Shown: positions 12,119 to 61,289, counted from the stretch's first letter. The stretch is DNA of 64,000 nucleotides from Neocallimastix sp. 'constans' (GCA_050613775.1 JBODTK010000102.1:62001-126000), one strand, 5' to 3'. Numbers and translations are program-made. Notes: generated from the letters alone by a model not told the origin.

Positions 12119-12181
<63 letters not shown>

Positions 12182-12674: not shown

Positions 12675-12705
<31 letters not shown>

Positions 12706-12804
12706 GGTATTTTAAGATATTAATTAGTAAGAATATATTTTATTATTTATTTTTTTTATACTATATATATTTTAATACTTAGCTTTATATGAGTTGAGGT
12801 GAGA

Positions 12805-12818
12805 TGAGACTCTTAATC
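12805..12818 (-). other. Primer-binding site complementary to the anticodon arm of tRNA-Lys(CUU)
   Basis: Plus-strand TGAGACTCTTAATC matches the anticodon stem-loop of eukaryotic tRNA-Lys(CTT) as recalled, and it abuts the LTR with no spacer. Confidence 0.85.
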
Positions 12819-13009
12819 TTTTAAACACTAAAATTATAGAAGTACACTTATAAAGTATGTAATATTAATATAGCATTTTTATTTATTATATAAAAACAAG
12901 ATTAACTATGTTTTTATGAACTATTTGTAATTTTCTTATCTTATTTTGTTTGTATATAAAATATGATTGGTAGACACTATGTTGGACACATTAATATTGT
13001 CGTTTAACA
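12819..13009 (-). repeat. 5' LTR of the copia element
   Basis: Direct repeat of 7508-7698. Confidence 0.95.
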
Positions 13010-13151: not shown

Positions 13152-13470
13152 ATGAGAAATATAGAACCCTTCAAATCAAACCCGAATTTTAAATTTGTCA
13201 ATCATAATATCATAGAACCTTTAGATATTGAAGAAAAATTAGACCAAGTAAATAATTTAACATATCAGGCATCATCACCTCATTATCAAAAGATCCACTA
13301 TTTTCAATTAATACTTGTTTCATTGGGACGACTAATATGTTAAATCTAGCAAGAAAAAATAATTGTAAAATACTTCAAGCAAGCACTCCTGAAGTTTATG
13401 AGGATCCCTTAGAACATCCTCAAAAAGGAATCATAAAGAAGTCATGTGAATTGTGTTCGAATTAGAAGTT
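13152..13470 (+). pseudogene. UXS1: Internal fragment of UDP-glucuronate decarboxylase (UDP-xylose synthase), frameshifted
   Basis: Stitched frames read NPNFKFVNHNIIEPL..DQV.NL..ASSPHYQ / IGTTNMLNLARKNNCKILQASTPEVYEDPLEHPQK / HVNCVRIRS. This matches the UXS motifs ASPxHYQ, GTxNML and ASTSEVYGDPxxHPQ. Confidence 0.85.
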
Positions 13471-17862: not shown

Positions 17863-19027
17863 ATGTACTATTTTTTAAATTTAATAACTTTTTTTATTAT
17901 AAGTTCAAAATGCCTATCTAGTAAAATTGAAATACCTGGGAGAGAGTCTTCATTGACATTTTTATCGAAAAATAATATGTTTAACTACAATGAGATATCT
18001 AATTTAGTTGTTTTTGGGTAATAATTACTTTTATTTAAATAATTTAAAAAAAAAACTAACTATATATAAATTTCTTTAAATAAATAGAGATTCACATTCA
18101 TATTCTGAAACAAATTTTAAAACAATGGAATCTTCAAAGAAGGTTTACTTTAACTTCTTTATTAATAAGATAATAATTATTTATAATATTTTTAATTAAT
18201 ATGATATTTTTTTAAACAATAAAAAAAGTTACTTGCTAATAGAAAAAATTGGCCAGTACAACTTGCTAATATACATAAAATGAAATTATGGAATTTCGCT
18301 TTAAATGGTTCTGTTGTTACTTTAGAATTGTAATTAATATTTATATAAACTTATTTAAGTTTAAAAAATTATTTTTAATTAATATTTTTTTTTTTTTTAA
18401 AGAGGTTGTGAATTTAGAAAAAAATATAAAGATTTCTTAAAACAATACAATTTATTTTATGAACGAATGAGTCATGGGAAAATATATTTTAATGAATGGA
18501 ATAGTAATAATACATTATTTTCTATATATATGGGATCTAACGATATTAATGATATTAATTTTATTTATAATAATAGAACTATTAATGAAAATATTAATTA
18601 TATAGTTGATATTATCTTTGATAAAATTGAATGTATAAAAGAAATTGGAGGAAATAATTTTTTAATAATTAATATTCCTCCTTTTGATAAAGCTCCAGTT
18701 AACTCTAAAAATAAATATAATTATTTTATAGATGAAATTTTTTTTTTTAACAATTTATTAAATAAGAAAGCTGAAGAATTGTATAAAAAATATAAAGATA
18801 TAAATATTATTATATATAATATTAACAATGAATATAAATATATTATGAAAAATTATAAAAAATATAATTTTATTTCGAGAAATAATGCATGGAAACTAAG
18901 CACAAACAAGGTATTCAGTAATCTTGATGATTATTTTTGGCGAGATAATACTCATATATCCAATAAGGCTAATAGAATCATCGCTGAAGATATAAATGAA
19001 TTACTAATATCTTTAAATAAAAATTAA
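17863..19027 (+). CDS. Secreted SGNH/GDSL hydrolase (CE16-like carbohydrate esterase), 4 exons
   Basis: ATG at 17863 begins the signal peptide MYYFLNLITFFIISSKCLS. Splicing three GT-AG introns gives NLVVFG|DSHS (block I), NWPVQL..LWNFALNGS (block II), YMGSND (block III) and FWRDNTHIS (block V). Confidence 0.88.
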
Positions 19028-19670: not shown

Positions 19671-20865
19671 TTATAATTATCTCTAAATATTAAATAAATT
19701 TTTGTAAATAATTTTCTTTTTAATAGTATAAAAATTCCTTTTTTTCCTTTAGAATAAAATTTTTTAAAATTATATTTATATTAATAAATTTACTATTTTT
19801 AATAAATTGGAATTGTATGTGACTAAAATATTGATATAAATTTTAATTATTTCAATCCTAATAATGTGTATTGAAAAGGGTTAGGGTTAGAAAGGAATTA
19901 TTTTTTTATATAAAAAATACAAATAAACTAAAGCTTAGAAAAAAAAATTCTAGAATTTTAATATTTAATTAATATTTTTTAGAAATAAAAATAACTTTCT
20001 TATATTAAAAATATTAGAATCATGTTCAAAATAATAATGTACATTTTTATGTTATTTATAGTTAACATAATACGTGACTTATTATTATTGGTCAAATATT
20101 TTACATGAATATATTAAAATATATATTATTTCTCCTTAAATTAATATAATTATAAAATTTTATATTTATATTTTTAACATTCCTCCTCAAATCTAACTTT
20201 GGATAAAAGTTATAATTGAATAGAAATATAGTGTTTGTATTAAAATATAAAATAATATTTTTGTTTTAATATGATTAAACAAAAAATTATAAATTTATAA
20301 TATTTTAAAAGAGTATGAATGATATTATATTTATATTTTTTATATTAATATTATGTTTTAATATTTTTATTATTTTATAATTTACAACATAATCTCTTTG
20401 GTCTCTTCTTCTTAATATGTTTCATTATCATTATTAATTTTATCATCATTTTCATCATCTAATTATTAATTATTTTAAATATTTTTCTTATTTATTATTT
20501 TATTCATATTTTTTGAAGTATTTATATACTATCTATATTTATAGAATAATTACCATGACTATCTCTAAAATCTATTTCATTAAGGGGTAGATTTGGTTTA
20601 ATATCTAAGTTAACTTCAGAAGATTTTAAGATTTCATTAATTATACTACTTCAATATCATCATATTTTTATTGTCTATCTTCTACATCTCTAATTTCCGT
20701 TGAAAGGAAATGTTTTTGAGCTTTTAACTATTTTTTTTTTATTGTTCATTTATTTTTGTTGTTATATATAAAATATTAATAATTTTTTTTTATCATCAAT
20801 ATATATAATTGATATTATTAATTTTTAAATTAAAATATTTATTTACTAATTTATTTGAATAGATA

Positions 20866-21406
20866 TTAGATAATTAAAAGTCCAGGTGTTTTAAGACGTA
20901 TATGATCATATAAAATACCATCGAATTGATAATTATTAGTATATTAATCAGTCTTATTGGCACATAGAGTAATTTTATTTTCTTCAATTCTGAAATCATT
21001 AGGTCTAATTTTGAATTCTAATTCACTGTAGAATCCTCGAATACCATTGCGGCGAACACAGACATCATCTTTAAAATTGGCAACTTCAGCTGAGTTCTTT
21101 CCTTCATTGATAGAGACTGAAAATAAGGTAGAACAACTAGCTGCAACCGAAACACGTAATTGATGTGTACTTGGATTAAAATTGTTAATAGAGAAATTTG
21201 GACTAATACCTAAAATACTATAAGTCCAAAAAAATAACGACGCTGTAAAATTTCCACGTTATTTAACATATCCTGGTTGACAAACAAATGAATATTATCA
21301 TTTATCTTTTTCAACTTTGACTACTGATTTAGCATCTTACAATAAAGCTTAAGGAGTCTCTGTCTTATTCAAATAAATTAAATATGGTCTATAAACTTTT
21401 GACCAG

Positions 21407-21437
<31 letters not shown>

Positions 21438-22200
21438 TTTCGGATATTCATCTCTTGCACCATAATAGGAACCAGCCATGCATATTATTACTAAGGAATC
21501 ATTTTCACCTTGATGACAAGCAAGATCATAATTATAAACACCTCCATTTTTTCATTCCGCTGATGGATTCACAAACTAACAACCTAAACCATTTTTAGCA
21601 GTTAAATCATGAATATCAGGTTTTAATGCATCAATTGTCCAATCATCTTTATGAATAACTTCACCTGTTTGTATTTTGCAAGTTTCTTTTGGAGCTAAAA
21701 CCTTACAGTTCTTTTGTTGTTCAGGGTTTGGTAAATAACGACCAACATCGTATTCAACTTGTAACCAACTGAATGGATTTCTTTTTAATCTTTAAATTGA
21801 ACAAATTTCACTGAATTGATTATCATGATAATTAACTTTATGATCAAGTTTTAAAGAAAATACTTACTCTTAGAATCATTAAGAATAGTATTATCTAACT
21901 TCCCATTTCGTATTTGATACATTATTAATGAAAGAAATTTTAACATGTTCATTTGTATTCTTAATTGTAAAACTTCTTTCACATGAAAGCCAGATTTTGA
22001 ACTATTAGTATCAATATAGGATCTATTTAAAAAATACTTGATTGTTACTAGCAATCTTTAATAAATAATATAACTATCTTTCTTAGAAATAAAAACACTA
22101 AGGTAGTTATTCTTTAAAATGTATGAATTATTGTTTTGTATCGAATTGACAGCATAAACAATAGAAGCCAAGAAGGTATCATTCAAAAAAGTTTTATGTT
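20866..22200 (-). pseudogene. Rhamnogalacturonan lyase (polysaccharide lyase family 4) relic
   Basis: Stitched frames read GRYLPNPE..TGEVIHKDDW..IHD..FVNPSAE.KNGGVYNYDLACHQG..SYYG..ENWSKVYRPYLIYLN..DAK..RG, then LRVSVAAS..RNGIRGFYSELEF..ENKITL..DGILYDHIRLKTPG. These parallel PL4 motifs such as WKKVFGPVFIYLN, RHGIHGLY and GIMYDYIRLE. The middle domain appears deleted. Confidence 0.82.
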
Positions 22201-23974
22201 AAATAAACTATGAAGGATTCTCTCTTTCTTCTATTTTCTCATTTAATATTTTTCATGGATTAATTTTTAATTATTTTTCATTTAGTGATTATTAGAATAA
22301 AAAAAATAACGTCTTTCTAATTATAATTTATAATCTACAACACAACAAATATATTATTTTTATTTTAAAATTAAAATTTATTTATCAGTAGAATACTTAT
22401 TGTGATTTATTGTACTTTTTATAGTTATCATTTACTTTAATAAGACTTCATATTTCTAACTTACAAAAAATATATGTGCTAATTCCTGGGGCCCTTTAGT
22501 AGATGTATTAATTTATTTTGGCATAAACTTAAACAAAATGGATAAAAATATTTTAAATATTTTAAGATGTTGAATTTTAAATTATAAAATAAATTTGTAA
22601 CAGTTGTAATTAATCCAACTTTTCGTTTTTAAAAGATAATTCCTTAATATTAATCATCTCAATTGCAATAACAACAATTTAAATATAAAACTTTATTTTC
22701 AAATAAGAACTTTTTATTGACTACTTTTAATTTTATTTTTAATAACAGCTGTCGAGGATTGTGACATTCAAATAGTTTCTTATCTATTAATAATGGATAA
22801 TGTATAAATAAATATTAACTATAAATCCTTTTGTGGCTGCATTATATTTAAAAATATAAATAATAAATAAATATTTTTTGTTGTAAATTGAATAATCCAA
22901 AATTTTGTTTCCAAAAAGTGACATTTCTTATTGGTATTCGTATAGAATATCTTTGGTTTCAAAGGAGAGCTTCTTAATATCCACAATTTCAATATTCTTT
23001 CGTCAAAACCATCTTCCCCTGATCAGGTTATTTCAAAACATTTATTTCCATTATTTAGGATCTTTTAAGAATTTATATATTTACATGATTCTATTTTATT
23101 TACAATTTCTAAATTCTTTTCATTGTTTTTAATGTGATTTTATATTTATTCTGTAATAATTCTTTTTAATTTTATTATTTTTCAAATAACTAATAAACAA
23201 ATAGAATTTCATTCTAAAAATCAAATTTAACACTTCAATTTATCAAATAAAACTTATTTTGAATATCGAAATTACATCACATTGAAAAATAAAATCATTG
23301 AATTCTCAATCATAAATAATTTCTTATAGCTTTAAAGATTAATTATCAAAACTTAAAAATATAATTTATTAAATAAATTTTCATAATGATACTTTCAAAG
23401 AATATTGTAAATTCTAAATATCAATTATTAACAAGTAAATATTTCGTTAAAGTTCTTTTTTTTTTAAATCTTTAACATGCATTTGATACATTTGATTTGT
23501 TTTGTTAAAAAATTTAAATAGATATTATTAATTAAAAGTTAGTAATATAATCAATTATACAATTAATAGATCAAATTTTATTTGTTTTATTTTAATTATA
23601 AAACTTTAATTAATATTATTTGTATTGATAAATTGAATTAAAAAAAATATACTCTTGATTTTAATTGGTAAGACAAATATTATATATTAAAGTTTGATAA
23701 TGTTTAATTCTGTTGGATCTTGATTTATTAATTAATATAATTAATTATTTTTAGAATTCTCATTTGAATTTTTATTTATATTTGAATTTAATAAATTGTA
23801 ATTTTTATTATATTAAGTTAAATAATACGAAACTTTATTAAATAAAGTATTAATAATATTTAATTTATTAATAATTTTGATTTAATAAAATTCTAATTAT
23901 TACTTTTCTTTAATTTATTAATTTTTACTCTAATATAATCAATATAATCAGTTGATTATAAATTATTTTTTATC

Positions 23975-24131
23975 ATGATGATGTTAAGTTTGCGTTCTTA
24001 GGGATTTTATCAAGTGTTTCATATACTCTCAAATTTATCATATTGTTGAGTTCATTATCGACTGATTTTAATCATTCGTTTTTATCATTTAAATTAAAGA
24101 TATCGTAATAATTATTTGGTTCATGTAATTC
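23975..24131 (-). pseudogene. Short copia pol relic (start of RT) inside the cargo element
   Basis: ELHEPNNYYDIFNLNDKNE*LKSVDNELNNM..KIPKNAN parallels EPNDFDDIFSLPDKDDWLKAINEELKKM..LPTGAN of the intact element. Confidence 0.75.
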
Positions 24132-24229
24132 TTTTAAATTTTTTTTTTTTTTTTTTTTTTTTGTGATAGTTTTAATTTACTGTATGATGTAAATATATAT
24201 ATTTTGATTGTTAATAATTAACAATAATA

Positions 24230-24434
24230 TTTTCAGTTCAAATTAATTATTTGACTGACCATATAATTTTTCAGTTCAAATTAATTATTTGACTGACCAT
24301 ATAATTTTTCAGTTCAAATTAATTATTTGACTGACCATATAATTTTTCAGTTCAAATTAATTATTTGACTGACCATATAATTTTTCAGTTCAAATTAATT
24401 ATTTGACTGACCATATAATTTTTCAGTTCAAATT
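24230..24434. repeat. Perfect tandem array, 5 x 38 bp plus a partial unit, hairpin-forming
   Basis: The unit cagttcaaattaattatttgactgaccatataattttt starts at 24234, 24272, 24310, 24348 and 24386, with a partial copy at 24424. Confidence 0.95.
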
Positions 24435-37494: not shown

Positions 37495-38619
37495 TTATTC
37501 AATGAAATTACCAAATCTTTTTATAAACCAATCTTTGTCTTTCTCTACTTTAAAAAAAAAATCTTTATCTTTTTCTACTTTAAAAAAATTTGTTTTCTTT
37601 TTTGGATTGCCAATATAGGGAAATTTAAAATCGTGTTTAACATAGATAAATGCATTTTCTAATTTGTTTATATTAAAAAATGATTTGTTATATTTAAATC
37701 CTTTATAATATTCAATAAATTTATTAATTTGATTATGATGTTGGCCTAATGAATATATACTTAAATAACCTTTATACAAATTTTTATTTAAAATTAATGA
37801 TTGAAATGCTGAATAAGTTCCTTTATAATTATAATAACAATAAATTTTATAATCATTTTTAATATCATCATTTATCATGGTAATTCCATCAATATATCCT
37901 TTAAAATATAGTGGTATACTAATATTACATTTATTTTGTATATCTTCCACAGCATCGTTATATATTAAATCATCATGATTAATTCTTGTTGTTATTACGA
38001 ATTTAGCTTCTTTAGTGTTATTTATGATATATTTATCTGTTAAATTAGAACGAATTACATTTATATTTATTGAAGATTCTATTTGTTTTAATTCTGATAT
38101 TGCTTTATTATTTTCTGGTAATTTATTATTAATTTTTATTATAATTTCAAAGTTTTTATTACTTTGATTTTCTAAAGATTTCAATGTAAATTTCTTAAAA
38201 ATATTAATTGCATTATGTAAGAACGAATAATTAAATATTTTTTCTTTTTTCATCAAGATATCTGAATAAAACCGAATAATAATAAAATGCTTGATTTCAT
38301 TAGTGTAATTTATTTCATCCATTGTTTCTTCATGGGATAAAAGTTTTATCGTGGAGTTTTTATTTTCAGTAATTATATTATTTTTATAAATTTTAATATT
38401 TTCTGAAGTTTTATCTTTATCTAACATATCTAAAGAAGGACATTTTTTACAAAATCTTTTAAGTTTTCTATTATTATTTTTGTTATTACATCTTTTCTTA
38501 CAAAGTAATAATAATTTTTGATTCTTCAATGCTCGCTCATTTAAAGCATAGTTTAATTTAACAAATAATATAGTAAAAATTAAAATGGTAATAGATAAGA
38601 ATTTGTTACTTATTTTCAT
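37495..38619 (-). CDS. Putative glycosyltransferase of the bacterial 'putative rhamnosyltransferase' type, with an N-terminal signal anchor
   Basis: Intronless ORF with likely start MKISNKFLSITILIF. Motifs HFIIIRF, F.KFTLKSLENQSNKNF and ITTRINHDDL resemble the RF..LPSL..QT..DF / TRxDxDD pattern. Confidence 0.65.
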   Translation of the reverse strand: MKISNKFLSITILIFTILFVKLNYALNERALKNQKLLLLCKKRCNNKNNNRKLKRFCKKCPSLDMLDKDKTSENIKIYKNNIITENKNSTIKLLSHEETMDEINYTNEIKHFIIIRFYSDILMKKEKIFNYSFLHNAINIFKKFTLKSLENQSNKNFEIIIKINNKLPENNKAISELKQIESSININVIRSNLTDKYIINNTKEAKFVITTRINHDDLIYNDAVEDIQNKCNISIPLYFKGYIDGITMINDDIKNDYKIYCYYNYKGTYSAFQSLILNKNLYKGYLSIYSLGQHHNQINKFIEYYKGFKYNKSFFNINKLENAFIYVKHDFKFPYIGNPKKKTNFFKVEKDKDFFFKVEKDKDWFIKRFGNFIE

Positions 38620-39299
38620 TTTTTTTATATATGAAATAATTTCTATAAGAAGAGTATTTATATTACAGAGTAATATTTTTGAATCCATTTGCTAATTTAT
38701 ATTTTTTTAATGAAATAAAGTGATTTAAGTTAATACCTCTTTAATTTTTAAATTTGATAAATTTTATTTATTTTAGATATTTTCCTTTCAATTATGAATT
38801 TTATTAATTTAATTAATTTTTTAAATATAATTTTTATTTCTAATTTTAAATTTAAAAATTAAAATTTTTAAAATATTCAAATATTTACTTTAAAATATAT
38901 CATTTTATTATTATTTAGTTCAGTTAATTTAAAATCCATTGTTTTGAGAATATTTAATTCATTTTGTTGGAATTGTTCATTTTTGGAAATTTAATTATAA
39001 ATTCAAATTGTTAGACATAATTTATTACATGTTTAATGTTTTAATATGTTTATTTTTATTTTGAAAATATAAATTAATCTTACAATATTTATTTAATATA
39101 AAACATATTAATTTTAAAATTTTTGTATTATTTAATTTCCGATACTAATATTTAAATTAAAAATTTTATAATTTGTTAATAATATATTATATTCTGTATT
39201 TAAAAATATAATAGTATTTATTTATCCTAAGAGAAAGTACTATTAAAACATTTATTTATTTTATTTTTTTATTTTCAACTTTTAGATTATTTCAGTTTT

Positions 39300-40090: not shown

Positions 40091-41225
40091 AAATAAAATC
40101 AAAATTTTTTAGAAATAAGAATATTTTTTATTGTATAAAAATATAAGAATAGTATATGAATATAATAATGTACATTTTTATGGAATTTATAGATAACATA
40201 ATATGTGGCTTATTGCTATTATTGGTAACATATTTTACATGAATATATTAATATATAGCATTACTACTTAAATTAATATAATTATAAAACTTCATATATA
40301 TATTTCCAACATTCCTCCTCAAATCGAACTTTGTATGAAAGTTTGAGTTGAATAAAAATATAATATTTGTATTACAATATAAAATAATACTTTTGTTTTT
40401 AATATTATTATATAAAGAATAAATTATAAATTAGAGTTATTATAATATTATAAGAATAAGAATGATATTATAATTTTTATATTAATATTATGTTTTGATT
40501 CTAATCATACGAATAATTTGAAAAATTATGATTCACTTTTCTTTTCATTCTTGGAAAAGATTAGACTTCTTACTATTATTATTTCCCTTTCGGTGTTGAA
40601 TTTCATATTTTATTACTTGCATTTTTCTTTGGTATAATTGATTCATCAATAGTTACTGCACTAATATATTTTTCAATAGTATCTAACTCTAGTTGTAAAT
40701 CATTATTATTATTGCTTTGTACGTTGAAAATTGTTTGACTTTGTACAGGGTAATTATTTTTTTTTTTTTAAATTTCTCTATCTACTTCATCATAATTAAT
40801 TTCTTCATCATCTAATTTTAGAATATTTAAAATTTTGGAAGAATTGTTTTTCAATTTTAACTTTTTTTTTTTGTTGAGTCAATATATACTTTTATTTAAT
40901 TTTGTGAAATACTTACATATTTACATATATATATATATTTTATAATTCTTATATTATGTTATTTTGTCATTTATATTTTATTAGTACATTTTTAATTTTT
41001 ATAATTATTCTTTTTTTTTTTTTAATTTTTTGTTTTTAATAAATTTTATTAATATTTTTTATATTTATTTTATATTTTATTTACTTTTTTATATGTATAC
41101 TAATTTTATTGCTCATTTATTTTTTATTGTTATATATAAATTAATTTTATTTAATTATTAATATAATTGATATTTTTAATTTTTTAAATTAAAATATTTA
41201 TTTACTAATTTTTTTGATTAGATAT

Positions 41226-41431
41226 TTTTCGAAATAAAAATATCTTTATTATGTTAAAAAATAAGAATCATATCATTTTATAAAATTATTCATTTTTATG
41301 ATATTTATAGTTTACATAATGTATAACTTATTATTATTACCTATCATATATCTTAAACAGATATATTAAAATGTATAACATTACTCTTTAAATTAATCTA
41401 ATTATAAAACTATATATTTATACTTCTAACA
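41226..41431 (-). repeat. Solo LTR of the same family inserted at the PL4 3' end
   Basis: Homologous to the 40107 LTR; flanks GATAT and GATTT give a 4/5 TSD match. Confidence 0.75.
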
Positions 41432-41700
41432 GATTTTAGATACATAATACCATAAAAGTGGTAATTATTGGTATATTCTTCTGTCTTTCTGGCATGTAAA
41501 ATAATCTTATTTTCTCTAATTTGAAATCATTGTGTCTAAATTTGAATTCTAATTCATCGTAGAATCCTCGAATACCATTGAGATGAACACAAGTATCTTC
41601 TCTTTATTTGGTAACTTCAACTGAATTCTTTCTTCCATTGATAGAGACTGAAAGTAAAGTAGAAGAATTAGCTGCAACTGAAACACGTAATACAGGTTTA
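41432..41700 (-). pseudogene. PL4 rhamnogalacturonan lyase C-terminal domain relic (second copy)
   Basis: LRVSVAANSSTLLSVSINGRKNSVEV..LNGIRGFYDELEFKFR..YTNNYHFYGIMY is clearly homologous at DNA level to 20915-21160. Confidence 0.85.
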
Positions 41701-44700
41701 CCAGTGGGTTTCTTTATCAAATTGAAACAACATGTTTAGTGATTTGTAAATCTTCTTTATAATCATTTAATGGTGATTCCCTTGGTGAATCTTTTGGTCA
41801 ATTTATAGGTAAATCTCTTGGTAAATCTCTAAGTAAACCTTTTGATAAACATAGAACTGGAATATTTTCAGTTGTTTAGAAAACATCAGAATTTTTTTTA
41901 TTAATGTAAACACATGAACCATCACTTAAGGAAATTGGATAACTAACATGAGATTGAATATTATTTAGTAAAATCTTAATTGATAATCACATTCATAGTC
42001 ATTATTAAAAATAATTAATTTATCGTACAATCCACCTATTGGGTAGTTTGGTTTTGGACTAACTTAATTTAATGAACTGTATGAAATATCATTGTCACAA
42101 TTTTACATATGATTTTTTCTCATAAAGATAAATCCACATATAGCAACTAAAGTAACTACACTTGTATCAGACAAAGAGATAATAACAACACAATTTGAAA
42201 TAATAAGTTTTTTCATTGGAAATTGAAATATTGATTTTATTTCCAGCTGCAATTGTTGCTTGAACATTATTGTATGGTAATACTAAAGGATCATAACTAA
42301 CATTAATAAAAAATAAAACTAATAATGATATACTCAAAGTTATCAATTTTAAAACAAATTTATATTTTATTTTTATTTCTTTATTTTAAATTTTAGAAAT
42401 TTATTTTTATTCAATGATATTTTTACTATTATTTGTATTCTATATAGATATGTATAAATCTTTCAAATTAAATTTTTATTATTTATAAATATTCTTTTAT
42501 ATTTATTAATTTTTATAAGCTTTTATAATAGGTTCATTATTAATATAAACTACTTTTTAAAAAATATACAATATATATATTTAAAAAAATATATATAACT
42601 TTATTGTAGAAACTGAAATTTTTAAAATAAATATATTAATAATACAATTAAAAGATTACAATGAGATAATGTTATAATTACAAATTATAAAATCTTTTTC
42701 ATATATATATAATAATTTTGAAAATTTTTTTTTATTTTCAATTATTCAAATTATTCAAATGTAAAATTCAATTATAATATTTTTTCTTAAATAAATAATA
42801 TATTTATATTATTTATTTATTTAATTATTTATTTACATATTTTTTATATCACCTTATTTAAGTTACTCAAATTAATTATTTGACTAATTATTTAAGTTTC
42901 TATTATTGTTGACAAATATTTATTTATTTTAATAAACATATGGTGAATTATTATATTATCAATGGAGTATTGTTTATATTTTAATATTACATTTTAATTT
43001 ATTTATTTTATATTATTTTATCTTGAAATTCTATATAGTAATGTTTTTCAGTTTAATCATTATTTACTGACTATCAAGGTATTTTATTTATTTTATTTAT
43101 TATTTTATTTTCAGTTTAATAATTAATTAACTGATTATTCTTTGTATTAATAATGATATATTATTCATGTTGAATTTCAGTTTAATTAATAATTAACTGA
43201 CTATTCTATTCTTTTTCAGTTTAATCAATGATTAACTGACTCTTTTTTATTTTTTTTTCAATTAATAAAAGATTAACTGGCACTTCTTTTATTTTTAAGT
43301 TTAATAATAATTAACAGCTTATTTTTATTTATAGTTGTATTTGCATTAAATATAAAATATTATTTTACTTCTATTTAAAAATTATTACCTGTTTTTTCTT
43401 TTAGTACATAAAATTATGAATATGAAAAAAAAATTAGTTATACTATTTTAATAATAATTATACTTCAATATTAAACATAACTTAATTTTGAAATAATCTC
43501 AGATACAGACTTGAGACTCTTTATCCTTTAGAAAAATAAAAAATCTAATTTCACTTTTTTATTAAAGGAGTTATTGATGAAATTTATATTATAATATATT
43601 TATATATATTAAAAAAAAATAAATTTAATTTTTTTCATTTAAACTTTAGTAATTTTAAATAAAAAATATTTAATTATTTTCATGTGATTATTAAAGTAAA
43701 TATTTAAATTTTTATAAAAAATTTCTTTTAAATATTTTGTGTTTTTTTTTATTAATATTATCAATTAAATTGTTTTTATTATTCTAAAAAGTCTTTACTG
43801 TTTATTTAAATTATCACATTAAATTGATAAAATTTATAACATGTTTTATGAATTTATACTTTAATATTTATGATTAACACAAAATTTTATTTTGAAAACT
43901 TTTGAAATTTATATTTATTTTCATCCTGTAATAATATTAATTTTTCTAAAAAAAATGATAATTCTCTTTTTTATTAGTATTACCTATTAAAAATATTTTT
44001 TAATTTGTTCAATTAAATAATTAAAACTAGTACTTTATATAAATAATTTAAAAAAATCTCTATTCATTTATTAGAATTATTTATTTAAAAAATGTATAAT
44101 TTTTACTTATTTTAATAAAATATTAGAGTAACTCTAATATTTAATAGTATTTATTTAATTTTTTTATTACAAATTATATTTGTTAAAATTAATGAATTAT
44201 TAATAGATAGTAAAACTAATTAAAAAAAAGATCAAAAATTTTATAGTATCAATTCATATAAAAATATTTATAGAATTTAATATAACTCTTTAAAATTTTA
44301 TTTATAAAATATTTATATATATTATTTCTTTTTATCTTTAAAAAAATAATTTATTTTTCTTAACATATATATATTTTGTAGTTGGATAATTTATAAAATT
44401 TAAATATTATTTTTAAAATATTAATATATTTTTATATATTAAAAGTAAAGTTATATTCTCAATATACATTGTATATTGAGAATATAATTTTACTAAAAAT
44501 ATATTATACAATATAAAAAATAAAAAATTTCATTAATAGTATAATAGAAATCTTAAATATAAATTTATATGTAAATTTATAATAAATTTTAAATATTTTA
44601 AATTTAAAATAAAAATTATGACTTTCACGTATAATTTAAAAATAGATATAATATAAGTTTATCTTTAAAATATTAATATAAATTATTTATCAAAACAATA

Positions 44701-45087
44701 GTATTCATAATATTGAGATATAATTTTATAATTATTTAAATAAGAAAAGTATTAAATATTTAAAATGCTAAATTAAAATTATTTTAAAAAATAATAATTT
44801 TTCTCATGTAATATATATTTATTATTTTTTTACATATTAAAAATGATATTTATAAATTATTTAAAATTTTTATTAAAAAATTATTAAATAAATATGAGAA
44901 ATCAGTGTTAATAATTATAATTCAATAGTTTTCTAAATTTAAATAAAAATAAATAAGTATATATGAGACATAACTCTAAATAATTTGTATGATATTATTA
45001 CATATACAAAAATTATTTAAATTTTATTAATTTTAAAAATTATTTTGTATTTGATTTTAATTTTATTACAAATATTTGGACTTTTAT

Positions 45088-46374
45088 ATGGATTTAATTA
45101 GTAATACTACAATTCAAAAAAGTAGAGTATATGATGATTTTCATTCAAGTAATGAAAATATATCTAGAACTCAGGAGGATCGAAATCAAATGCAAATAAA
45201 TATTTCAAATTTAACTCCTAATATTCTGACTTCTATTACTACTGGGAGTGAAGCTACCCTCAATGAAAGTCTTCCATCTCTTCAACCTAAAAAAAGAAAA
45301 CGTTTATACTGGGCTGATTGTGCTCGTATCTTCTCTATGTTTGGAATTATTTTATTACATAGTGCGGGTTATGGATGTGAAAAAACCCTCCTCAAACGAA
45401 AAGACTCAAATGTAATGATCATTTGTTTCTATAATTGTATGACTCGTTTCGGCGTTCCAATGTTCGTCCTACTTTCAGGAACATTTATTCTTGATCCATC
45501 CAAGACTTTCTCATTCAAAAAATTGTTTAGACATAATATTTTGAGATTAGCAACAGCATTTGCCTTTTGGTCATCAATCAATGCATTAATTAATATTTTT
45601 CTTTATAAAAAGAACAAACCGTCTGAATTCTTAAAAATATTTGTAGTTGGTGAAGAGTATCTCTGGTTCATATTTATGATTATTGGTTGTTATCTTATTT
45701 CACCTTTTTTACGCCTTTTTTCTGATGATGTTACTCTTGCCAGATATTTTTTAGGACTTTGTGTTTTTTGGGGATCGTTAATTCCAACGCTTAAAAATAT
45801 TTTTATTTCTTATCATTTGAAGGAAGCTCAAGACGAGTTAAACATATGGACTAGTCGTTGGCATTATCATTTTACTTTGGAATTTGTAGGGTATTTTGTT
45901 GCCGGTTATCATATTGTCAATCATGTCAATATTAAATCATTAAAAATTCGAGTTCTACTCTATGTATTAGGATTGGCTGATGTTTTTCTTATTTTTTATA
46001 TGACCTATAGTCTGGAAATGAAAACTGGACGTTATTCTAAAGATTTTCGTGATAGTTATACTTTAACGGTAGTATTCTATACAGTAATACTTTTTATTTT
46101 TTTTAAACATGAAATTGGACAAATTAATTTTTCAGAAAGGGCCATAAGAATAATTTCAAAATTATCGTATTTAACTTTCGGCATGTATCTCTCTCATATG
46201 ATTCTGAAAGGCTTATTATCGAGATATGCCCACATAAAACAAGAAGAATTTTTAGGTATAAAATTTAGTTCAACTATCGGCTGTCCCATTTTTTGGATTA
46301 TTATATCTGGAAGTAGTTTACTCGTAAGTTATCTCTTATCAATTACACCAATTTTAAAAAATTATGTAGTGTAA
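45088..46374 (+). CDS. Acyltransferase family 3 (membrane O-acetyltransferase, WecH/OafA-like)
   Basis: RLYWADCARIFSMFGIILLH, RFGVPMFVLLSG, YLWFI, GYFVAGY and SYLTFGMYLSH are AT3 hallmark motifs. The ORF is intronless with many TM segments, and the first ATG is at 45088. Confidence 0.92.
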   Translation: MDLISNTTIQKSRVYDDFHSSNENISRTQEDRNQMQINISNLTPNILTSITTGSEATLNESLPSLQPKKRKRLYWADCARIFSMFGIILLHSAGYGCEKTLLKRKDSNVMIICFYNCMTRFGVPMFVLLSGTFILDPSKTFSFKKLFRHNILRLATAFAFWSSINALINIFLYKKNKPSEFLKIFVVGEEYLWFIFMIIGCYLISPFLRLFSDDVTLARYFLGLCVFWGSLIPTLKNIFISYHLKEAQDELNIWTSRWHYHFTLEFVGYFVAGYHIVNHVNIKSLKIRVLLYVLGLADVFLIFYMTYSLEMKTGRYSKDFRDSYTLTVVFYTVILFIFFKHEIGQINFSERAIRIISKLSYLTFGMYLSHMILKGLLSRYAHIKQEEFLGIKFSSTIGCPIFWIIISGSSLLVSYLLSITPILKNYVV

Positions 46375-47862
46375 AGAAATTGAATTTGTTATATTAATAT
46401 AGAATTTATTTTAAGAATAGAAAAATTTTATAGATTTTTTTTATACTTTAATTATTAATCTTTATATTATAAATTTTATAGAAAAATAATGTTTATTAAA
46501 ATAGAAAATAAATTTTTAAGTTTTTAAACTACTTTCTTTAGTTTTCTTTTTTTTTTTGAAATTTTATTTTATTTCAGTTTTATTTTAATGTTTATATTTG
46601 TACTTTAAATGAATAAACAAATTTTAAAAATATATATTTTAACTAAAAGTTATTTTTTTTAATTTAAAATTAAAATTTTATAATGAAAAATTTTAAAACA
46701 AATTTTTTAAATTGAAATAATAAAATTTATATTTTTTTTGTAATTTTAAAAAATTTTATTGTAATAAAAGTTAATATATAAGGTTATCAATTTAAAATAT
46801 TTTTTAAAACAAAAATTGAAAATAAATAATTATTATTTAAATTTTTTTATTTTATTAATTTTTTATAATTAATACTAATTCTGATATTAATATTGATTTA
46901 CATAAATAATTTAAATATTTTTACTATGTAATTGTTATATTTATTTTTTAAAGTTTATGTAATTAATTTCAAAGTTAATATATTTAATATAAATTATGAA
47001 TTACTAAGGATGTTAATTATTATAAAAAGAAGGTTTTTTATTTTTATCATAATATTAATATATTTTTTTTCATTTTTAATTTAGTATTGTTTTCTATTTT
47101 ATCTGGTGATTTAATAAATTTTAATCCCTTAAAATAAAAAACTCTTTATAATGTAAAGTATAATAAACGAATAATAATAGTAAAAATATAATTCTTATTT
47201 TTTATTTATAAAATATTTTTATTTAACTGTATTTTTTAATTGAGATAGTTATCGAGATTTTATACTCAGAAACTACAATTATAATATATAAAAATAATAT
47301 ACTAACTATTATGAAATTATATAATAATAAATTAAAAATACGAATAATATATTTATTATTGATTTAACTTTATCTTCTTAATAATTACAAATTAAATTAC
47401 AATAATGAAAATTTTTTATTTATAACATATAAAAATTTAAAATTATTTTACATTATAAAAAATAAATTTTTATTAAACCAGAAAAAATAATTTTTAAAAA
47501 TTATTTTTAAAAATTTAAAAAATTAAACAAATATGAAAATAATTAAAATTAAATTTAATAAATTTTATTTTAAAAAAAAATATATTTTTCAAATTATTTA
47601 AATGTTCATTGCTTATATGAAGTATTTAATATTAAATATATATATTTTTTTAAAAAATTAAATTTTAATAAATTATATTTTATTAATTAAAATTATTTAA
47701 TTTTAAATATTTTATAATTATATTAAATATTGTTAATATTATTTATACAAAATACTTTTAAAAATATATTTTAATGTTAACTATACATGCTGTAAAAAAA
47801 TTAATTAATTAAATTTTAATTTAATATAAATATAAATAAATTATTTTTTTTTAAATTAAAGT

Positions 47863-48666
47863 ATGAAAAAAATGAAATTGATTATAAAAGTGTTTTTTTA
47901 TATTTATATTTATTTTGAAATATTTTTTAAAAATATAAATACATTACCATTATCTATTGTAGTTCCAGTATTTAATACAAGTCCTTATTTAAATCGTTCT
48001 ATTAATTCTATTTTGGATCAGACTTTCAATGATTTTGAATTAATACTTGTTGATGATGCATCAACAGATAATTCTTTGGAAATATTAGTAAATTATAGTA
48101 AAATAGATAATAGAATTAAAACCATTCATTTTGAAATAAATAAAGGGGTCAGTGCTGCGAGAAATGCAGGCATAGATATAGCTAAAGGTGAATTTATAGG
48201 ATTTGTTGATAGTGATGACTTTATTGATAAAAGATTTTATGAAAATTTACTTAAAAATTCAAAAGATTATGATGTTATAGAAGGAAATTTTATCGCTGGT
48301 ACCAATATCTCGGAAAGTTATAAAAAATTAAATTTACGTTTTCATTGTTCAATTTTTGATTCAATATGGAGAAGAGATTTTCTAAATAAATATAATCTTA
48401 GATATGATGAATCAATGAGAAATGGAAGTGATAAAAAATTTAGAATGGAGGTCTATCAATATAAACCAAGAATTTTTGTGTCTCCGGATGAAGGAATTTA
48501 TTATTATTATAAGAGAAGAGTAGGCTCTCTTTCAAATTTTAGTGAAATACAATTGAAATATTTAAATAAGGAAGCTTTTAAAGAAATCAGAAAACAAAAA
48601 AGAAATAAAAATAAACATAAAAAATTAATTAAAAGAGAAAAATTAAAAAAAAAAAAAAAAATTTAA
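47863..48666 (+). CDS. Glycosyltransferase family 2 with N-terminal hydrophobic anchor and Lys-rich tail
   Basis: SIVVPVFN..YLNRSINSILDQT..ELILVDDASTD..NKGVSAARNAG..GEFIGFVDSDD are GT2 motifs; the ORF is intronless. Confidence 0.93.
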   Translation: MKKMKLIIKVFFYIYIYFEIFFKNINTLPLSIVVPVFNTSPYLNRSINSILDQTFNDFELILVDDASTDNSLEILVNYSKIDNRIKTIHFEINKGVSAARNAGIDIAKGEFIGFVDSDDFIDKRFYENLLKNSKDYDVIEGNFIAGTNISESYKKLNLRFHCSIFDSIWRRDFLNKYNLRYDESMRNGSDKKFRMEVYQYKPRIFVSPDEGIYYYYKRRVGSLSNFSEIQLKYLNKEAFKEIRKQKRNKNKHKKLIKREKLKKKKKI

Positions 48667-52495: not shown

Positions 52496-53069
52496 AAAAA
52501 CAAGTAAGTTAAGTATTCAATATAATAAGATTATTTCCTATTATAATACTTAATGTAATAAAAATAGTAAAAAATTAGTAAAGTCAAACAAAAATAAAAT
52601 TAAAATGTTAATTTTTAATATAACAAATTATATTAATAGATAAATCAAGAACCAACAGAATTAAATATTATCAAAGTTTAATAAATGGTCTATATCTTAC
52701 CAATCAAAATTAATAATACTTTTTTTTCTAAATCAATTTATCAATATGAATATTACTAAATAAAGTTTTATAAATATAGCAAAACGAATAAATTTCAATC
52801 TATAAATTGTATAATTAATTATATTACCAAACTTTAATTAATAATATCTAAATAAATTCATTAACGAAATAAATTCAATGTATAATAATCAAATGCATCA
52901 AAACCATCACTATCATGACAATTATTAAATCATAATAATTCAAACAGTCTAATATATGTTAAAACCTCACAAAAATCTAAATTTAAACTATTTTTTAAAG
53001 ATTTGCAAAAATTTTAAAAATGGACAGGTAAATGTAGAAAAATAAATTAAAAAGTTACTAAAATTCGGA

Positions 53070-53580: not shown

Positions 53581-56101
53581 ATCAATAATTAAAAAAAAAA
53601 AACAAAGTAGTTATATTGAAATTTTATTTCCAAAAATGAAATTAATGAGCTATTATACATTTTGATAATTAATATAATATATAATGTGATTAATATAAAT
53701 TTTAAATAAATAGAAAAATTATTATTAATATAGGATTTAATATTAAATTATAAAATTTAAAAAAATTTTAATTTAATTTTTATTTTTTGAAATTTAAAAA
53801 TTTTTTAAAGCGAAAAGTAATAATTTACCCATAATATATTACAAATAATATATCAAATTAATTAAGAATACATTATTTAGTACATTCTTATAACAATTGG
53901 TATAGTTCATAAATATTAAGGAATAAAATAACAAATAAATACAAAATTAAAAATTACCATATAAAATAATTTCTTTTTTAAATTTATACTTATATATATA
54001 TAAAATTATAAAAGAAAACTATATAATTATTTTAGACATATAGATATGGTATATAATTTTATAATGATTTAATTTTATTTCTATTTAGATATAACTTTTT
54101 ATTTATTAATATATTTTTAGTAATAGAATAAAAAAAACATATTTGCTTACAAAGCTTTTATACATGAATAATATTTATTAAAATAATTTATTGGTTAATA
54201 AAAATTAAAGTATAATAAATATATTTTAAAACTCCTCCTCAAATGTAAATTTGATTCAATGTTACATATATTTAATTTTAATTTTTAGAATTAAAGTCTT
54301 AAGTTTTCAATTTTATATAATTAAGGATTTCAAAATATTTCCATAAGAGTGTAGTTTAGATATTTTGTAAATCCATCGGCTAATTTATTTTTTGATTGAA
54401 TATACTCTAATTTTATAAATTTTAATTATTATCTTTCTAATGAATTCTTATATCTATATTATTTATATTCGAATTAATTGATTGAATTTTGCTGTTGAAG
54501 ATGGCAACTATGTTATCTATACTTATTTTAATATATTTAATATTATAATATAATAATTTCATTACGTTTAAATACTAAATACAGTGTTTACCACATTCAC
54601 TTAAACTATAGTACTTCGAATCTCCAGTAGATGTTGAATAGCAATGTTTCAATTTGGAACACCAGCTAGTGGGTGCGTTGTTCATGGTTACTAAAAAACT
54701 TGTCATTGTGTTTCTGGTCTCAATATCTCCTGCAAAGTCGGCACCAATAAAAGCTTGTTTTCCTAGTTTTCTTGTATTATTTATTTCGTTATTCATTGTG
54801 CCTTTTAGGTATCTAAGTATTCTTACGACATTGTTCTGGTCTTCCATATTGGGATAATTTTATTTTCTTGATGCTTTACTTACCGAAAATATAATATCCG
54901 GTATAATGAATATAGATATGTAAAGTAAATTTCCTATAGTAATTCAGTAAATGGTTTTATTAAAATTTATATTTTTTAATTTATTTTTTATTATTAATTT
55001 TTTATTTCTTAATAGCTTTTCATTGTTTATTTTAATTTTTTTCTATAATCTCTTTAAAATATCTTCGTTGAGGTATAAAATATTCTATTTTGTGCTTAAT
55101 AACGAAATCCACATCTCAAATTTCTTTTATTTTATATTTTCTCATTAAGCTTTCCTTTATATATTTCATTTTCTTTTCCAGGGATTAAAATATCACCATA
55201 TAAATACTGACAATGCACAAAATGTTTTTATTCTTTCAATTTTATATATATATGGTTCACTTACAATTCTTCTAAGTCTTTATTAAAAATTTATAAATTT
55301 CCTTGTTTCATTCTCGTATACTTTGTTTCAAACCATATATAGCTTTGTTCAATTTTCAGTAGTATTTATTAAAATCTAAATGAACTTCTGGTGGTTTCAT
55401 ATATATATTCTCCCTTAATTTGGCATTAAGGTAAGGGAGAATATATATATTAAAATTTATTCTATATTAAAATTATTTTGAGAAGCTATTAGGGTCAGAA
55501 TTCTGATTGAGCCATCTTTTAATATTGGAGTAAAAGTATCATGAAAATATATTCCAAATTTTTGAGTAAAACTTTAATCCAGCAATCTTGCGCTTCTTTT
55601 TGTTATCTCGACAATTGTATTTCTTTTGTATTTAAAAATCCATCGTGAAGTAATTAAATTGACATTTTCTGGTATATATTAAATTGTATTAAATATATTT
55701 AAGTTTTTCATATTACTTAATTCTTCATTTATTGTATTAATCAATTCTTTACTATTAGTATAAATTTTTATATTTTAGTAATTTTTGGTTCTTTTAAGTA
55801 TTTATGGTTTTTATTCTATTGTTGTTATTGTAAAAAACTAATGTTCCTAGTATTATTTTTGTTATTGTAATTAATTTTATTAAATTATTATTAGTCAATA
55901 AAGTATTTATAATTTCATTTTCATTATATAGAATATAATTTTTATTGATAATTAGTAGTCATCTACTCTTTTATTTTCAATATTACTATTATTGATTATT
56001 TTATTTACTATATTATTATTTATTTAATTATTGGTTCTTTTTCTATTCTGATTATTATTATTATTATTAATATTACTATTATTATTGCTTATTATTGATA
56101 T

Positions 56102-56388
56102 TGTTAATAAACACACAATTAAGAGACACACAATATTAAGATAATATTATAATTATGTTTAAGTAAAGATGTTTTATATTCTTTATTATATATTAATATT
56201 TATTATTATAAATATATATAATTAAGTATGTATGATCGTATATATATATTAAGGTTTTTTATTGTTAAAGAGATAAAAAAAAATTAGGATTATTATTTAA
56301 GCACGTTTTATAGTATTTCGAGTATTTTGTATTTGTAAAATATTGGATAATCATAGATTAAATTTTATATTAAAATATATTTTTAACA
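56102..56388. repeat. Solo LTR (287 bp) with canonical TG...CA ends
   Basis: TGTTAA...TTAACA termini and a perfect TSD GATAT (56097-56101, 56389-56393). Confidence 0.85.
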
Positions 56389-57949
56389 GATATTATTAAA
56401 AAATAAAACTAAAATACACTCAATTTAAAAACACTATAAAATATCTTTTTTTTTAATAATCATTTTATAATAACTTTATATTAAAGATTGTAATAATATA
56501 AAATTATTATTTCCTAATAAATAAGAAGTTCTTTTAATTTATTGAATAAAAACATTTCGGTTTTATATATTCGGTTAACTTAATAAAATCAATTTCATTG
56601 GTTATTCAATTAATGGATAATTTTAATTATTTATAATATACCAATTATTTTTAGCAGACAAAATTATTATTATTTATATTATTATTATTGATATTATTAT
56701 TACTACTTATTTTATTATTATTTATATAATTATTATTTTATTATTGTTGTTGCTATTACTATTGTTGCCATTATTTTTGATTTTATTATTAATGATATTA
56801 TTAATATTATATTAGTCATCATTATTGGTATTTACATTGTTATTGTTAATATTATTGTTACTGAAATTATTATTTCTTTGTTTATTGTTATATTTCTTTT
56901 TATTCTTAGAATTATTTTTAATAAATATATCTTCGTATATTTTGTGTATTATATAATTTTAATGAAATAATAAAAATTTTTATTGAATTAAAAAATACAT
57001 TATAGATGGGACAGAATATTTTATTTAATTTTTGTTGAATTTTATGATAAATATCATTAGTATTATAGTATGTGTTATCTCCTTTTATTTCGTTATCTAC
57101 AATGAAATTTGAAATTTCAGTGAGTATTCTTTAAGGTAACTGTTTCCAGGATTGGATTCGAAAAAAGCGACTGATCCAGATAGGATTATTTTATTATTAG
57201 TAATATCTAATATTTTATAGGCTGATGGATTTTCAGATTATCAAAAGAATATCTCTGGTTTAGTATAGTTATCGAATTTAGATCTAAAAACTTAAAGGAT
57301 AAAAAAATAAATTTTGTATCGAAATACTTAAATATTTGAATAGGTGACCTTTGTTTTATTAATTATTTCATAAGTGATTTTCAGATTTATTCCTTTGTTT
57401 GAAATACCACTATATATATAATTAGCCGTAGATGTAGCATCTTCCCAAAATTGGTGACTAAGTATAGAATCATTCAACATGACTTTGTCTGAATTTATTA
57501 AAGTACCATTGAATCATTCCATCATTCCATTTTGTTATAAATTATATGATTTAGTTAGTTGATGTTTAATATGGTAAGATTTGAATAATAAACTTTAATT
57601 ATTATTACAAAACTCTGTACCATTATCAGTTCGAATATGTTTAATTTTAATATTATACTTATTTTTATTACATATGAATCAACTTTAAAATAAATTAAAT
57701 GTATAACTTTTGAAATTTAAAAGCATAATTTATCCATAACATGAATAGTCATAAAGGAAAGTAAATAATTTTTGTTGCAATAAAGCTATTCAGGAAGAGG
57801 ACCAACCAAGTCTATAAGAAGTAATTCAAATTTATGTTTATATTTATTTATTACTAATTTATATGGTTTGTTTTTATTTTCGAATTCGTACAAATTAGGC
57901 ATTGATTAATTGAGGTATTTTGTTTTTGTATCGAAACTTATAATCAATA

Positions 57950-60480
57950 AATTAGTGACCATGGTTATATACTAAGACCGTAGAATTGGACTCTCTTGGT
58001 TTGACTCACACTTCTTCAAAATTTTACAAAAATTTTATATTAAAAAATTATTTGGTAATTCTTTCTATGTATTTCTTAGTAAAAAATCACTGGAATTTAA
58101 TAGATAAAATCTTTATCAATTAAATTCAGAACAATCTGGATTTTTTTATTATTTTATATATTTTTTCAATAAGATTCATTTTAAATCAAAATATCTAAGT
58201 TTCTAGAACTTTTATAATCTTTTATAAACGAAACTGTTTATATTTAAAAAGTACAAATAAGTGCAAATTTTCAATAACAAAAATATTTTAATTCTTATTT
58301 TTATTAATTAATTAATTAAATATTCAATATGTAATTCGAAAAATTACAATAACTGAATAATAATTAACATTTTTATTATTAAATAAAATTAATAAGACAC
58401 ATTTCTAATAAAGCAAATTTCAAATTATTTATAATGTTTTCAAATTTATTGTGTAGAAAATAACTAAAACAATTTGTTCCTTCAATTTATTACAATGGAA
58501 GTGCTCTTTTAGAAAAAAATAACCAAAACAAAAAAAATAATAATTATAACAGAAGTAATAATAGTAGGAAACCAAATCACAAAAAGAAATTTACTAACCC
58601 TAAATTCCATTGTCCCTTATCAAACGAAGAAAGAGAAAGAAAAAGAAGAGAAAATCTTTTTTATATTGTGATTCAGCGATCATTCTCTGGATAGAGTTTA
58701 GTAGACAAATTTTATTTCAATAAAAGATAAATGAAATTCTTTAATGATATTTTAAATTTATTTTAAATAAAATAAGTTAATTAAATTTATTTAATTTAAG
58801 TATATTTGACATTGTTAACATTTTTTAAGTAAATATTTATCGAGTTTAAAAGAATTAATAAATTATCAAATAAAATATCAAACACACCAAAAGCCTCTTT
58901 CAGTACCACCAATTAAACCATGAAGAATGATGATTCCAAGGATAATAAGAAGACTGAGACATCTCTGCTCAATTTTTTGATAAAAATGATTGAAACCATG
59001 ACCTCCACAGTAGAGGCCATAATCAGTCATATTACTAAGGTCAATACGCTTCTAACTTCCTTCGAAAAGAGGTTCAATTCCTTTGGTAAAGTCGTACAGG
59101 ATAATTTAATGAAGATACTTCAAGAATGAATAAAGTGAAAAAACAAAGCCTGAAGAGTATTGAGGATGCCAATGAAAGGATGGTTACTAATATTAATGAT
59201 CAACGTAAAGGTAGCCAGGCTCCAAAGTCTCCAAGAGATTCTAACTACGAAGTAGTTATGAGACATATCACCAATCCTCAGCCTTACCATTCTTCTAATT
59301 CCATGAAGAAACCATAGAAGTAAAACTTTATTGATAGTTGCATGAGTTACTTTTATTAATATTCTATTAGATACCTTTAAGATGAACAAGAAAATATATA
59401 CCACATTACTGACCGCCTGTAAGGAAGCACCGCTCTGTGATACTAATATACCCAGAAAGAGACCCAGGAAAGACGTGCAGATATTGCTATATCTTTGGAA
59501 GATACGAAAACTGACTTTCATTTGAAAGAAGACAAGGAACTAATGAAATCTAATCTCCTCAATCTGAAAAATGAATAGAGTAAAGTATACGATATCTTGG
59601 TTAATTCAGACGACTTACCAAAGCAATCGGTTGTACCGAAGAACAGAGAAAAGGTATCTAAAATTGTCAGGTTTGATCATCGATCGAAATAAAATTTATG
59701 AACCTAGAGTCTAACAACCCTATTAAGATCACTCTAACTGGTATAACTCTTTTCCTGATCGGTTGTGACATTGACCAGAAAAGTTACTAAAATCAGAAGT
59801 TAGAAAAAAGGGACGGTCTCCAGGACTACTGAGCTCTAGTTGCTGAATTGTTAGATATTTACAGTACGGAATATAGAATTTTCGATCACTAGAAACAGAA
59901 AGAAGAAAAAGATAAGAAAGATTCTAGAAAAAAGAAACACAAACAGTACATTCCTTTGAGAGTAGGCATAGACTCACAAGCTTGACACCTGGTCCTTATT
60001 CAACGGAAGAAAAGTGGAGAACTCCGCCTATATATTGACTACTGAAAATTATATCAAAAAGTTTACCTAGATGATATTATTATTTATTTAAAAAATTTTG
60101 AAGTACATGTTAAGCAGGCACAAACTGTCCTACATCTATTCATAGATAACTAGCTTGTAGCTAAAATTTTCAAGTGTGAATTTTGCGAGCAAGAAGTTAC
60201 ATTCCTTGTCCACATTGTTAGCAGTGAAAATATCAAACTGATCCTAACAAGCTTGAAGCCATTACATCCTGGCCAACTCCTACCAACATAGGGGAAGTTA
60301 AATCGTTCATCTGATTCTGTAACTACTACTGTCGTTTTATTTAGGACTTCTCTAAAATAGTCAGGTTTATTCATCATCTTACTAACAAAGATATTGAATT
60401 TTAATGAACAACAACTGCCAGACTGCCTTTCTAAAGTTAAAGAAACTTTTTGTTTCTTCTGGATCCAAACCAGGACAAAC
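57950..60480 (+). mobile_element. Ty3/gypsy relics (gag and RT) nested in the old copia element
   Basis: PLSNEERERKRRENL..YC (gag knuckle region, ~58613), and YLDDIIIY..KCEFCEQEVTFL.HIVS..DPNKLEAITSWPTPT..FCNYYCRFI at 60064-60345. Confidence 0.8.
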
Positions 60481-61289
60481 TTTTCATTTATGTTAATATC
60501 ATCAGTTGAAAATATTATTTTCATCTTGACGATGTTTTTTATTTTAGTTTTAATATTATCAGTTGACAATTTAATTTTCATTTTTTAGTTTTATATAAAT
60601 ATCTTCAGTTGTCATTTTAATTTTCATCTTGATGATATTAATTTTAATGTAATTTTAGTATCAAACTATAATTTTATTTATAATTGATTAAGAAAAAAAA
60701 TCTTTATTTCTTACGGATTCAATTAAGTAATAAATAAAAATATAATCAATAATAAAAATAATTATAAATTAACACTTTTATTTTATTAATAATAAAAATA
60801 ATAAAAATATAATTTATATTATAACTTAACTTTATTTTAATTCAACTCATTAGTGGATTGATACTCTTAATCTTTTAGACACATTCATATTTTATATAAT
60901 TCTATAAAGATATAAATTTATTTTAATATAAATATTATTTTTTATTTATTAATATATTTTTAAGTATAGAATAAAGAAAACATATTCACTTATAAAGCTT
61001 TTATACATAAATAATATTTAATAACTTTATAAATATAAATATAAAATAAAACCAATATAATTAAAACATTAATTTATTTTATAAAATTTATTATTTCTTA
61101 TTTTATGTAATTATAATTAATATTTATAATTCAAGCCAAATTCTAATTATATTATAAAGTCATTAGATTTAAATTTAAAACTGTAACTTATATTTGAATA
61201 ATAAAAACTATCTTATATTAATATATTAATGTAGGCTTGAATATTTCATTTTATATCATTTGTTCTCACAATAAGATACAACTATACAA

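Follow-up and report, generated by a model that had tools for sequence, protein, structure and literature searches.

A 5'-truncated copia-type LTR element carrying pieces of two dead host genes and probably formed by a template switch

Overview

The element at 40107-43560 (-), called E2 here, is a 5'-truncated copia-type LTR element that has no coding capacity of its own and carries pieces of two dead host genes, and it probably arose by a template switch between related elements. It was compared with two further elements, E1 (19977-25043 (-)) and E3 (29879-34270 (+)), which lie in the same window, the 64,000-nucleotide stretch of DNA that was analysed. At least three cargo-bearing elements, E1, E2 and E3, are found within 64 kb; their identified cargo is always in the sense orientation of the element, and all cargo seen in them is dead.

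Elements of the LTR family in the window

The window has a G+C content of about 18% and copia pieces are abundant in it. E1 is a complete, Ty1/copia-derived, non-autonomous element with two LTRs (6 differences in 203 letters), a perfect target repeat of 5 bases, a PBS, a PPT and a pol remnant, and without intact gag-pol. Its 5' LTR is followed in order by a PBS-like motif, a 38-base hairpin array, the copia pol remnant (23976-24134 (-); 41% over 53 residues to positions 902-954 of the copia polyprotein encoded in the window), a PL4 pseudogene (20869-22177 (-)), the 3' internal region and the PPT. The pseudogene is near full length, spanning residue ~11 to 600 minus two internal deletions, with 10 stops in 421 codons, and was once whole from signal peptide to stop. 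Further ORF-like remnants in E1, at 22800-23150 (-) and 20500-20660 (-), are possibly additional cargo.

The PBS and PPT motifs of E1 are those of a near-complete copia at 7504-13009 (-), an example of the kind of helper that would be needed; these two motifs are common to the copia and the E1/E2 family, and the LTR body is not. The PBS letters in E1, E3 and the full copia are identical to the internal tRNA-Lys PBS given in PMC5445492, and the tRNA-Lys reading of the PBS follows that paper. An Rfam search at the E1 PBS gave no match, and ARAGORN gave no tRNA across the window. E3 belongs to the same LTR family and has both LTRs (15.5% apart, both beginning with A instead of T), a PBS and a PPT; comparison of its flanks gave no matching target repeat. 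Its cargo, unlike the PL4 of E1, is a decayed arfaptin/BAR gene (arfaptin-like, ~33110-33526 (+)), so cargo capture in this LTR family is not specific to PL4.

Ten LTR copies of the family were counted in the window, starting at 6686, 19977, 24838, 29879, 34064, 39300, 40107, 41226, 49456 and 52270. They begin with TGTT and mostly end in AAAA, not CA, and the LTRs of the copia at 7504-13009 end alike. Tandem repeats of 38-46 bases were found at 7094-7250, 24224-24434, 30480-30610, 43045-43320, 60535-60627 and 12476-12552, a few hundred bases past PBS motifs in several elements; repeat units from E1 and E2 are predicted to fold as hairpins, and the arrays are possibly packaging or dimer signals. 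In addition, E1 23477-23832 is 80% alike to 52534-52898, which lies directly after the PBS of the element starting at 52270 (+). The stretch 26805-29800 (+) is a copy of the copia that is truncated and contains an internal duplication, and 54030-61066 (-) is a decayed copia of greater age, which has an LTR pair of its own and the same PBS.

Anatomy of E2

The original prediction was of a second, diverged element at this place, and the element is real: its 3' LTR, PPT, 3' internal region, PL4 piece, hairpin leader and PBS match those of E1. All features of E2 lie on the minus strand and are given here from the 3' end. The 3' LTR (40107-40311, TGTT...AAAA) differs by 17-18% from the E1 LTRs and is adjoined by the PPT (40312-40330), which together with the conserved 3' internal region (40312-40499) is 80% alike to E1 20180-20362 and 74% alike to E3 33951-34063. 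Assignment of the 3' internal region to the RNase H end of copia found no support outside the PPT motif (26 of 100 shuffles scored equally high). The next segment (40500-41103) is mostly unshared with E1 in shuffle alignments: only its first ~120 bases align to E1, and weakly (1 of 300 shuffles as high), and over the interval from PL4 to the 3' internal region 14 of 100 shuffles scored equal or better. It contains an ORF-like remnant (40609-40872), a candidate for extra cargo; in a search at E up to 1, none of 434 candidates was a relative of it, which is weak evidence. Behind the PL4 stop follows a block (41104-41225) common to E1 20737-20867 (83%; 0 of 100 shuffles as high), which is a likely candidate for the PL4 3' untranslated region.

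The coding end of PL4 has been deleted from E2, and at this place, bordering the PL4 piece, is a solo LTR of the same family (41226-41431); its flanks (41221-41225 and 41432-41436) form a target repeat alike at 4 of 5 letters. The PL4 (rhamnogalacturonan lyase) piece itself (41440-41726) derives from domain III, residues ~495-590 of 600, has one stop, one frameshift and the coding end deleted, and is 82% alike to E1 over 253 bases; it represents about the last 95 codons only. The named proteins closest to it come from Neocallimastix californiae, N. lanati and N. 'constans', so that Neocallimastix or a close anaerobic gut fungus is the likely host. Upstream of PL4 lies a second dead gene, gene X (41726-42346). 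The leader of E2 holds a short hairpin-forming repeat array (43045-43320), the alignment of which to the E1 leader beats 100 of 100 local shuffles, and is followed by a PBS-like motif (43512-43527; 2 mismatches versus E1 and the full copia) and, on sequence comparison, a stub resembling an LTR end (43528-43560). The remainder of the 5' LTR is missing: past the stub the LTR profile found no match, and shuffled sequences reached the same score in 98 and 88 of 100 cases. E2 retains only the 3' LTR and the stub, without a readable target repeat. No match to gag-pol was found in E2, and its tie to copia consists of the LTR, PBS, PPT and leader.

The claim that E2 repeats the module order of E1 thus stands for the order itself, but E2 has no 5' LTR, has received a solo LTR, carries another gene upstream and contains the unshared segment 40500-41103. 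The further claim of the same PL4 cargo at the same internal position did not stand: E2 holds only the 3' end of the gene, behind another gene, and E1 holds nearly all of it.

Gene X and its joint to PL4

The gene X pieces correspond to residues 1-43 and 233-382 of P0033, an SH3-tailed single-pass membrane protein, and contain 4 stops; 190 codons were lost from E2 by internal deletion, and a suggested gene X intron, into which P0040 reads, falls inside that deletion. The product of gene X has ~900 residues and a weak SH3 match; a signal peptide and a membrane helix are apparent by eye, and the cluster of this protein contains an N. californiae 'SH3 domain-containing protein'. P0041, with 23% identity, was set aside as a chance match.

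The gene X and PL4 pieces meet at 41726, out of frame and with an overlap of 1 base. The joint is sharp, because expressed gene X copies align to 41726 and PL4 contigs depart at 41726/41727. It is spanned with 0 differences by contigs of runs X1 (possibly the window's own source), X4 and X9 in a public-contig comparison that was confined to 41420-42290; a word-share table, in which 8 of 24 rows reached at least one half, was kept out as habitat evidence. In RNA run X9, E2 was present at depth 4.8, possibly as DNA, and in run X13 there was no E2 contig more than 90% alike.

A base missing from E2 at 41972 is also absent from DNA contigs of depth 442 (X1) and 222 (X4), the depths of E2's own contigs being 32 and 18, and is present in the main RNA contigs. 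Taken as a hint of copy number only, these depths suggest about ten more dead copies of gene X. Over 46 columns of gene X, E2 and one dead copy, P0038, have 10 derived residues, 6 of them in common.

One PL4 capture or several

A single capture of PL4 is likely. Distances between E1 and E2 are alike across modules (LTR 17-18%, PL4 18%, 3' internal region 20%, downstream block 17%). Over 137 sites that are fixed among nine resident PL4 proteins, E1 and E2 have 17 changes each, of which 6 are common against 2.1 expected (permutation p 0.006). This p is too kind, because the six changes are partly dependent (two lie in one codon), are mostly G>A (four of them, this being the commonest change) and include one also found in an outgroup and one common to all four dead copies. 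At 293 sites, E1 and L001, a third dead PL4, have 10 changes in common (5.0 expected, p 0.012), again with nine residents, and 3 common stop codons among the 10 codons at which either has a stop. E2 and L001 showed no excess of common changes (2 versus 2.7 expected), and a stop common to E1 and L001 is absent in E2. The P0004/P0024 models fall in the same 90% cluster as the ORF of L001, and their ends match E1 20605-20528, which lies ~270 bases beyond the stop of PL4 (61% over 26 residues, E 0.001-0.002). P0006, P0007 (a fourth dead type) and P0027 end, like E1, with three identical extra residues.

In a tree of dead and resident PL4 copies, E1 and E2 grouped together (74/86), as did the four dead copies (66/84), with support too weak to prove one capture and the bootstrap unsettled; P0003, P0006, P0012, P0023, P0026, P0027 and P0030 (near-copies or cut models) and P0011 were omitted. 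With polarisation by two outgroup transcripts alone, the site patterns were 3/3/3, a star.

The leading alternative is that PL4 was captured independently at least twice from a multi-copy resident array, the shared 3' end reflecting recurring mRNA ends and G>A decay. Residents are indeed many and near-identical (their cluster counts 50 members, with several on one contig), the three dead copies for which there is DNA lie equally far apart (18-19%), and the C-terminal synonymous differences of E1 (13.5 and 12.5, versus 5.5 for E2-L001) are as expected from a different parent paralog. The excess of shared derived changes and the shared stops, the agreement between LTR and cargo distances, and the stretch past the gene that P0004/P0024 have in common with E1 all speak against it, and independent capture is considered rather unlikely.

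A single old capture carried through later jumps, as the original prediction had it, is supported by the shared derived changes, the stops shared with L001 and the relative ages of cargo and LTRs in E1. The E1 cargo differs from the residents at 91 of 671 fixed sites, or 8.5% when weighted to LTR base make-up, and half of the E1 LTR pair divergence is 1.5%, making the cargo ~5-6 times older. On these values the PL4 of E1 was already decayed at the last jump, unless the LTRs were homogenised later. We infer secondary rounds of transposition from this age difference and from the shared stops and shared frameshift among dispersed copies.

A metagenome scan for PL4 3' ends confirmed 4 of 299 candidates, all of 1-2.2 kb and none reaching an LTR. 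In viral contigs the same scan confirmed 0 of 31, and the PPT plus LTR-start pattern was found in none of the prokaryote genomes and none of the viral contigs searched.

Origin of E2

Under the preferred reading, host mRNAs would have been captured in sense orientation by copia-derived elements that retain the LTR, PBS, PPT and leader hairpins. Such internally deleted copias would keep their cis signals and be packaged by autonomous helpers, host mRNAs entering by template switching; autonomous copias with the same PBS and PPT may then have moved the cargo elements in trans. The PL4 cargo would have died early and been carried passively thereafter, which would account for E1, for the 3' half of E2 and for further dead copies dispersed in Neocallimastix genomes. 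The 5' half of E2 would come from a separate amplified lineage bearing the dead membrane-protein gene, with reverse transcriptase switching from a PL4-bearing RNA to a gene-X-bearing RNA to produce E2; chimeric RNAs of this kind could jump again and recombine. After insertion, E2 would have received a second LTR insertion, which collapsed to the solo LTR, and its 5' LTR would have been lost.

The 1-base overlap of gene X and PL4 provides no microhomology for template switching. It would equally suit an origin by internal DNA deletion from a longer element in which both genes had been captured in turn, without recombination between lineages, and both elements do show internal deletions (two in the PL4 of E1, 190 codons of gene X in E2). 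No high-depth copy of gene X was shown to lie between LTRs, and a DNA-level deletion from a two-gene element would look alike. Against a deletion, E1 has no gene X upstream of PL4. Moreover, the high-depth gene X contigs continue with gene-X-like letters at 41828 and have no PL4 joint among the pieces listed; in each DNA run, the contig of E2 itself is the sole listed piece that crosses 41726. Deletion is held to be distinctly unlikely as the origin of E2, and a switch between two lineages is preferred.

Decay and selection

It had been suggested that PL4 may at one time have served the element as a selected accessory gene, and the data turn against this. The dN/dS for E1-E2 was 0.51 (0.26-1.13; 81 codons), below 1 in 95% of bootstraps, and this is the sole dN/dS result in favour; that for E1-L001 was 0.96 (0.56-1.69; 182 codons) and that for E2-L001 2.06 (1.04-7.9), compared with 0.22-0.26 for the intact pair L002-L004, and none of the element-borne values is clearly below 1. 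E1 formerly held the whole gene, which would suit a working accessory gene kept by selection for a time. However, neither E1 nor E2 retains an intact translatable PL4 frame, three stops are older than the split of E1 and L001, and the PL4 piece of E2 is out of frame and without a start. An accessory role is very improbable, because the stops predate the split of the copies and the fusion is out of frame.

A segmental duplication or assembly artefact, to which a repeat-rich and very AT-rich region might be prone, has practically no probability left: homology between E1 and E2 stops at the element ends, the flanks scoring like shuffles (31 of 100 and 92 of 100 as high), the target repeat of E1 is perfect and the junction at 41726 recurs letter for letter in three runs, which supports E1 and E2 as two separate insertions of one LTR family.

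Relation to known systems

Capture of the E2 type is a known process. LTR-mediated gene capture is described for animals, plants and yeast assays, and genes captured by transposons have been described in fungi. PMC5131818 (Tan et al. 2016) gives a template-switch model of deleted elements, packaging in trans and chimeric RNAs that jump again; the fungal cases in that paper are induced yeast assays. The LTR-mediated retrocopies of that study resemble the present elements in being partial host mRNAs inside LTR elements, in sense orientation, and in including chimeras of two parental genes and further non-autonomous rounds. They differ in that the cargo of E1 and E2 is old and dead, that the one junction examined lacks microsimilarity and that the host is likely an anaerobic gut fungus. 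For anaerobic gut fungi no earlier report of LTR gene capture was found in the literature searched, which was incomplete, and the word retrotransposon is absent from PMC6712302, which discusses the PL4 domain of these fungi.

Maize Bs1 (PMC13317346, PMC5131818) is likewise an LTR element with pieces of several host genes, including cell-wall enzymes, and secondary jumps, but its chimeric gene is transcribed and translated, whereas the fusion in E2 is out of frame and stop-laden. The fungal copia clade FunCo1 has, like E1, E3 and the full copia, a PBS complementary to an internal part of tRNA-Lys; it is reported to be almost confined to Pezizomycotina, and no chytrid or member of the Neocallimastigomycota is named in the portion of PMC5445492 consulted. 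LTRs of the E1/E2 family end in AAAA, not CA; the likeness to FunCo1 is one of PBS letters. In Pseudocercospora, a fungal histone H3 gene was captured by a hAT transposon and amplified as dead copies (PMC6710886); that case concerns a DNA transposon and RIP, and the window an LTR retroelement with several cargos. A copia that captured a working MBD domain (PMC6673714) also carries a host-derived gene, but its cargo is functional and the cargo of E2 shows no such sign.

Significance and further observations

Anaerobic gut fungi have large, AT-rich genomes and expanded families of plant-wall enzymes. A native route by which mRNAs are copied and fused would, if true, be a testable source of gene duplicates and fusions. 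That these fungi contain a widespread copia-derived family with a high rate of host-mRNA capture and with cargo exchange between its copies, and that some of their intact, intron-poor, domain-shuffled plant-wall enzyme genes were copied or fused in this way, is an unlikely extension; any biological effect of capture is unproven here, because every cargo seen is dead. The PL4 type of anaerobic gut fungi is reported to be unique among fungi (PMC6712302).

P0004, P0024, P0006 and P0027 are public Neocallimastix models that have the look of stitched, decayed PL4 and lie off the contigs of the resident PL4 cluster. They look like gene models on dead, probably element-borne PL4 copies, and such models would inflate enzyme counts.

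A decayed piece resembling NAD-dependent epimerase/GDP-mannose dehydratase was found at 13289-13435 (+) (Pfam E 4e-5, below cut-off). It adjoins the copia, downstream of a partial LTR, PBS and hairpins (6686-7250), and may be the cargo of an older element into which the copia inserted. Long open frames lying among the elements of the window encode a putative rhamnosyl transferase (37495-38691 (-)), a putative acyltransferase 3 (45061-46374 (+)), a putative glycosyltransferase 2 (47860-48666 (+)) and a putative GDSL lipase (18401-19027 (+)).
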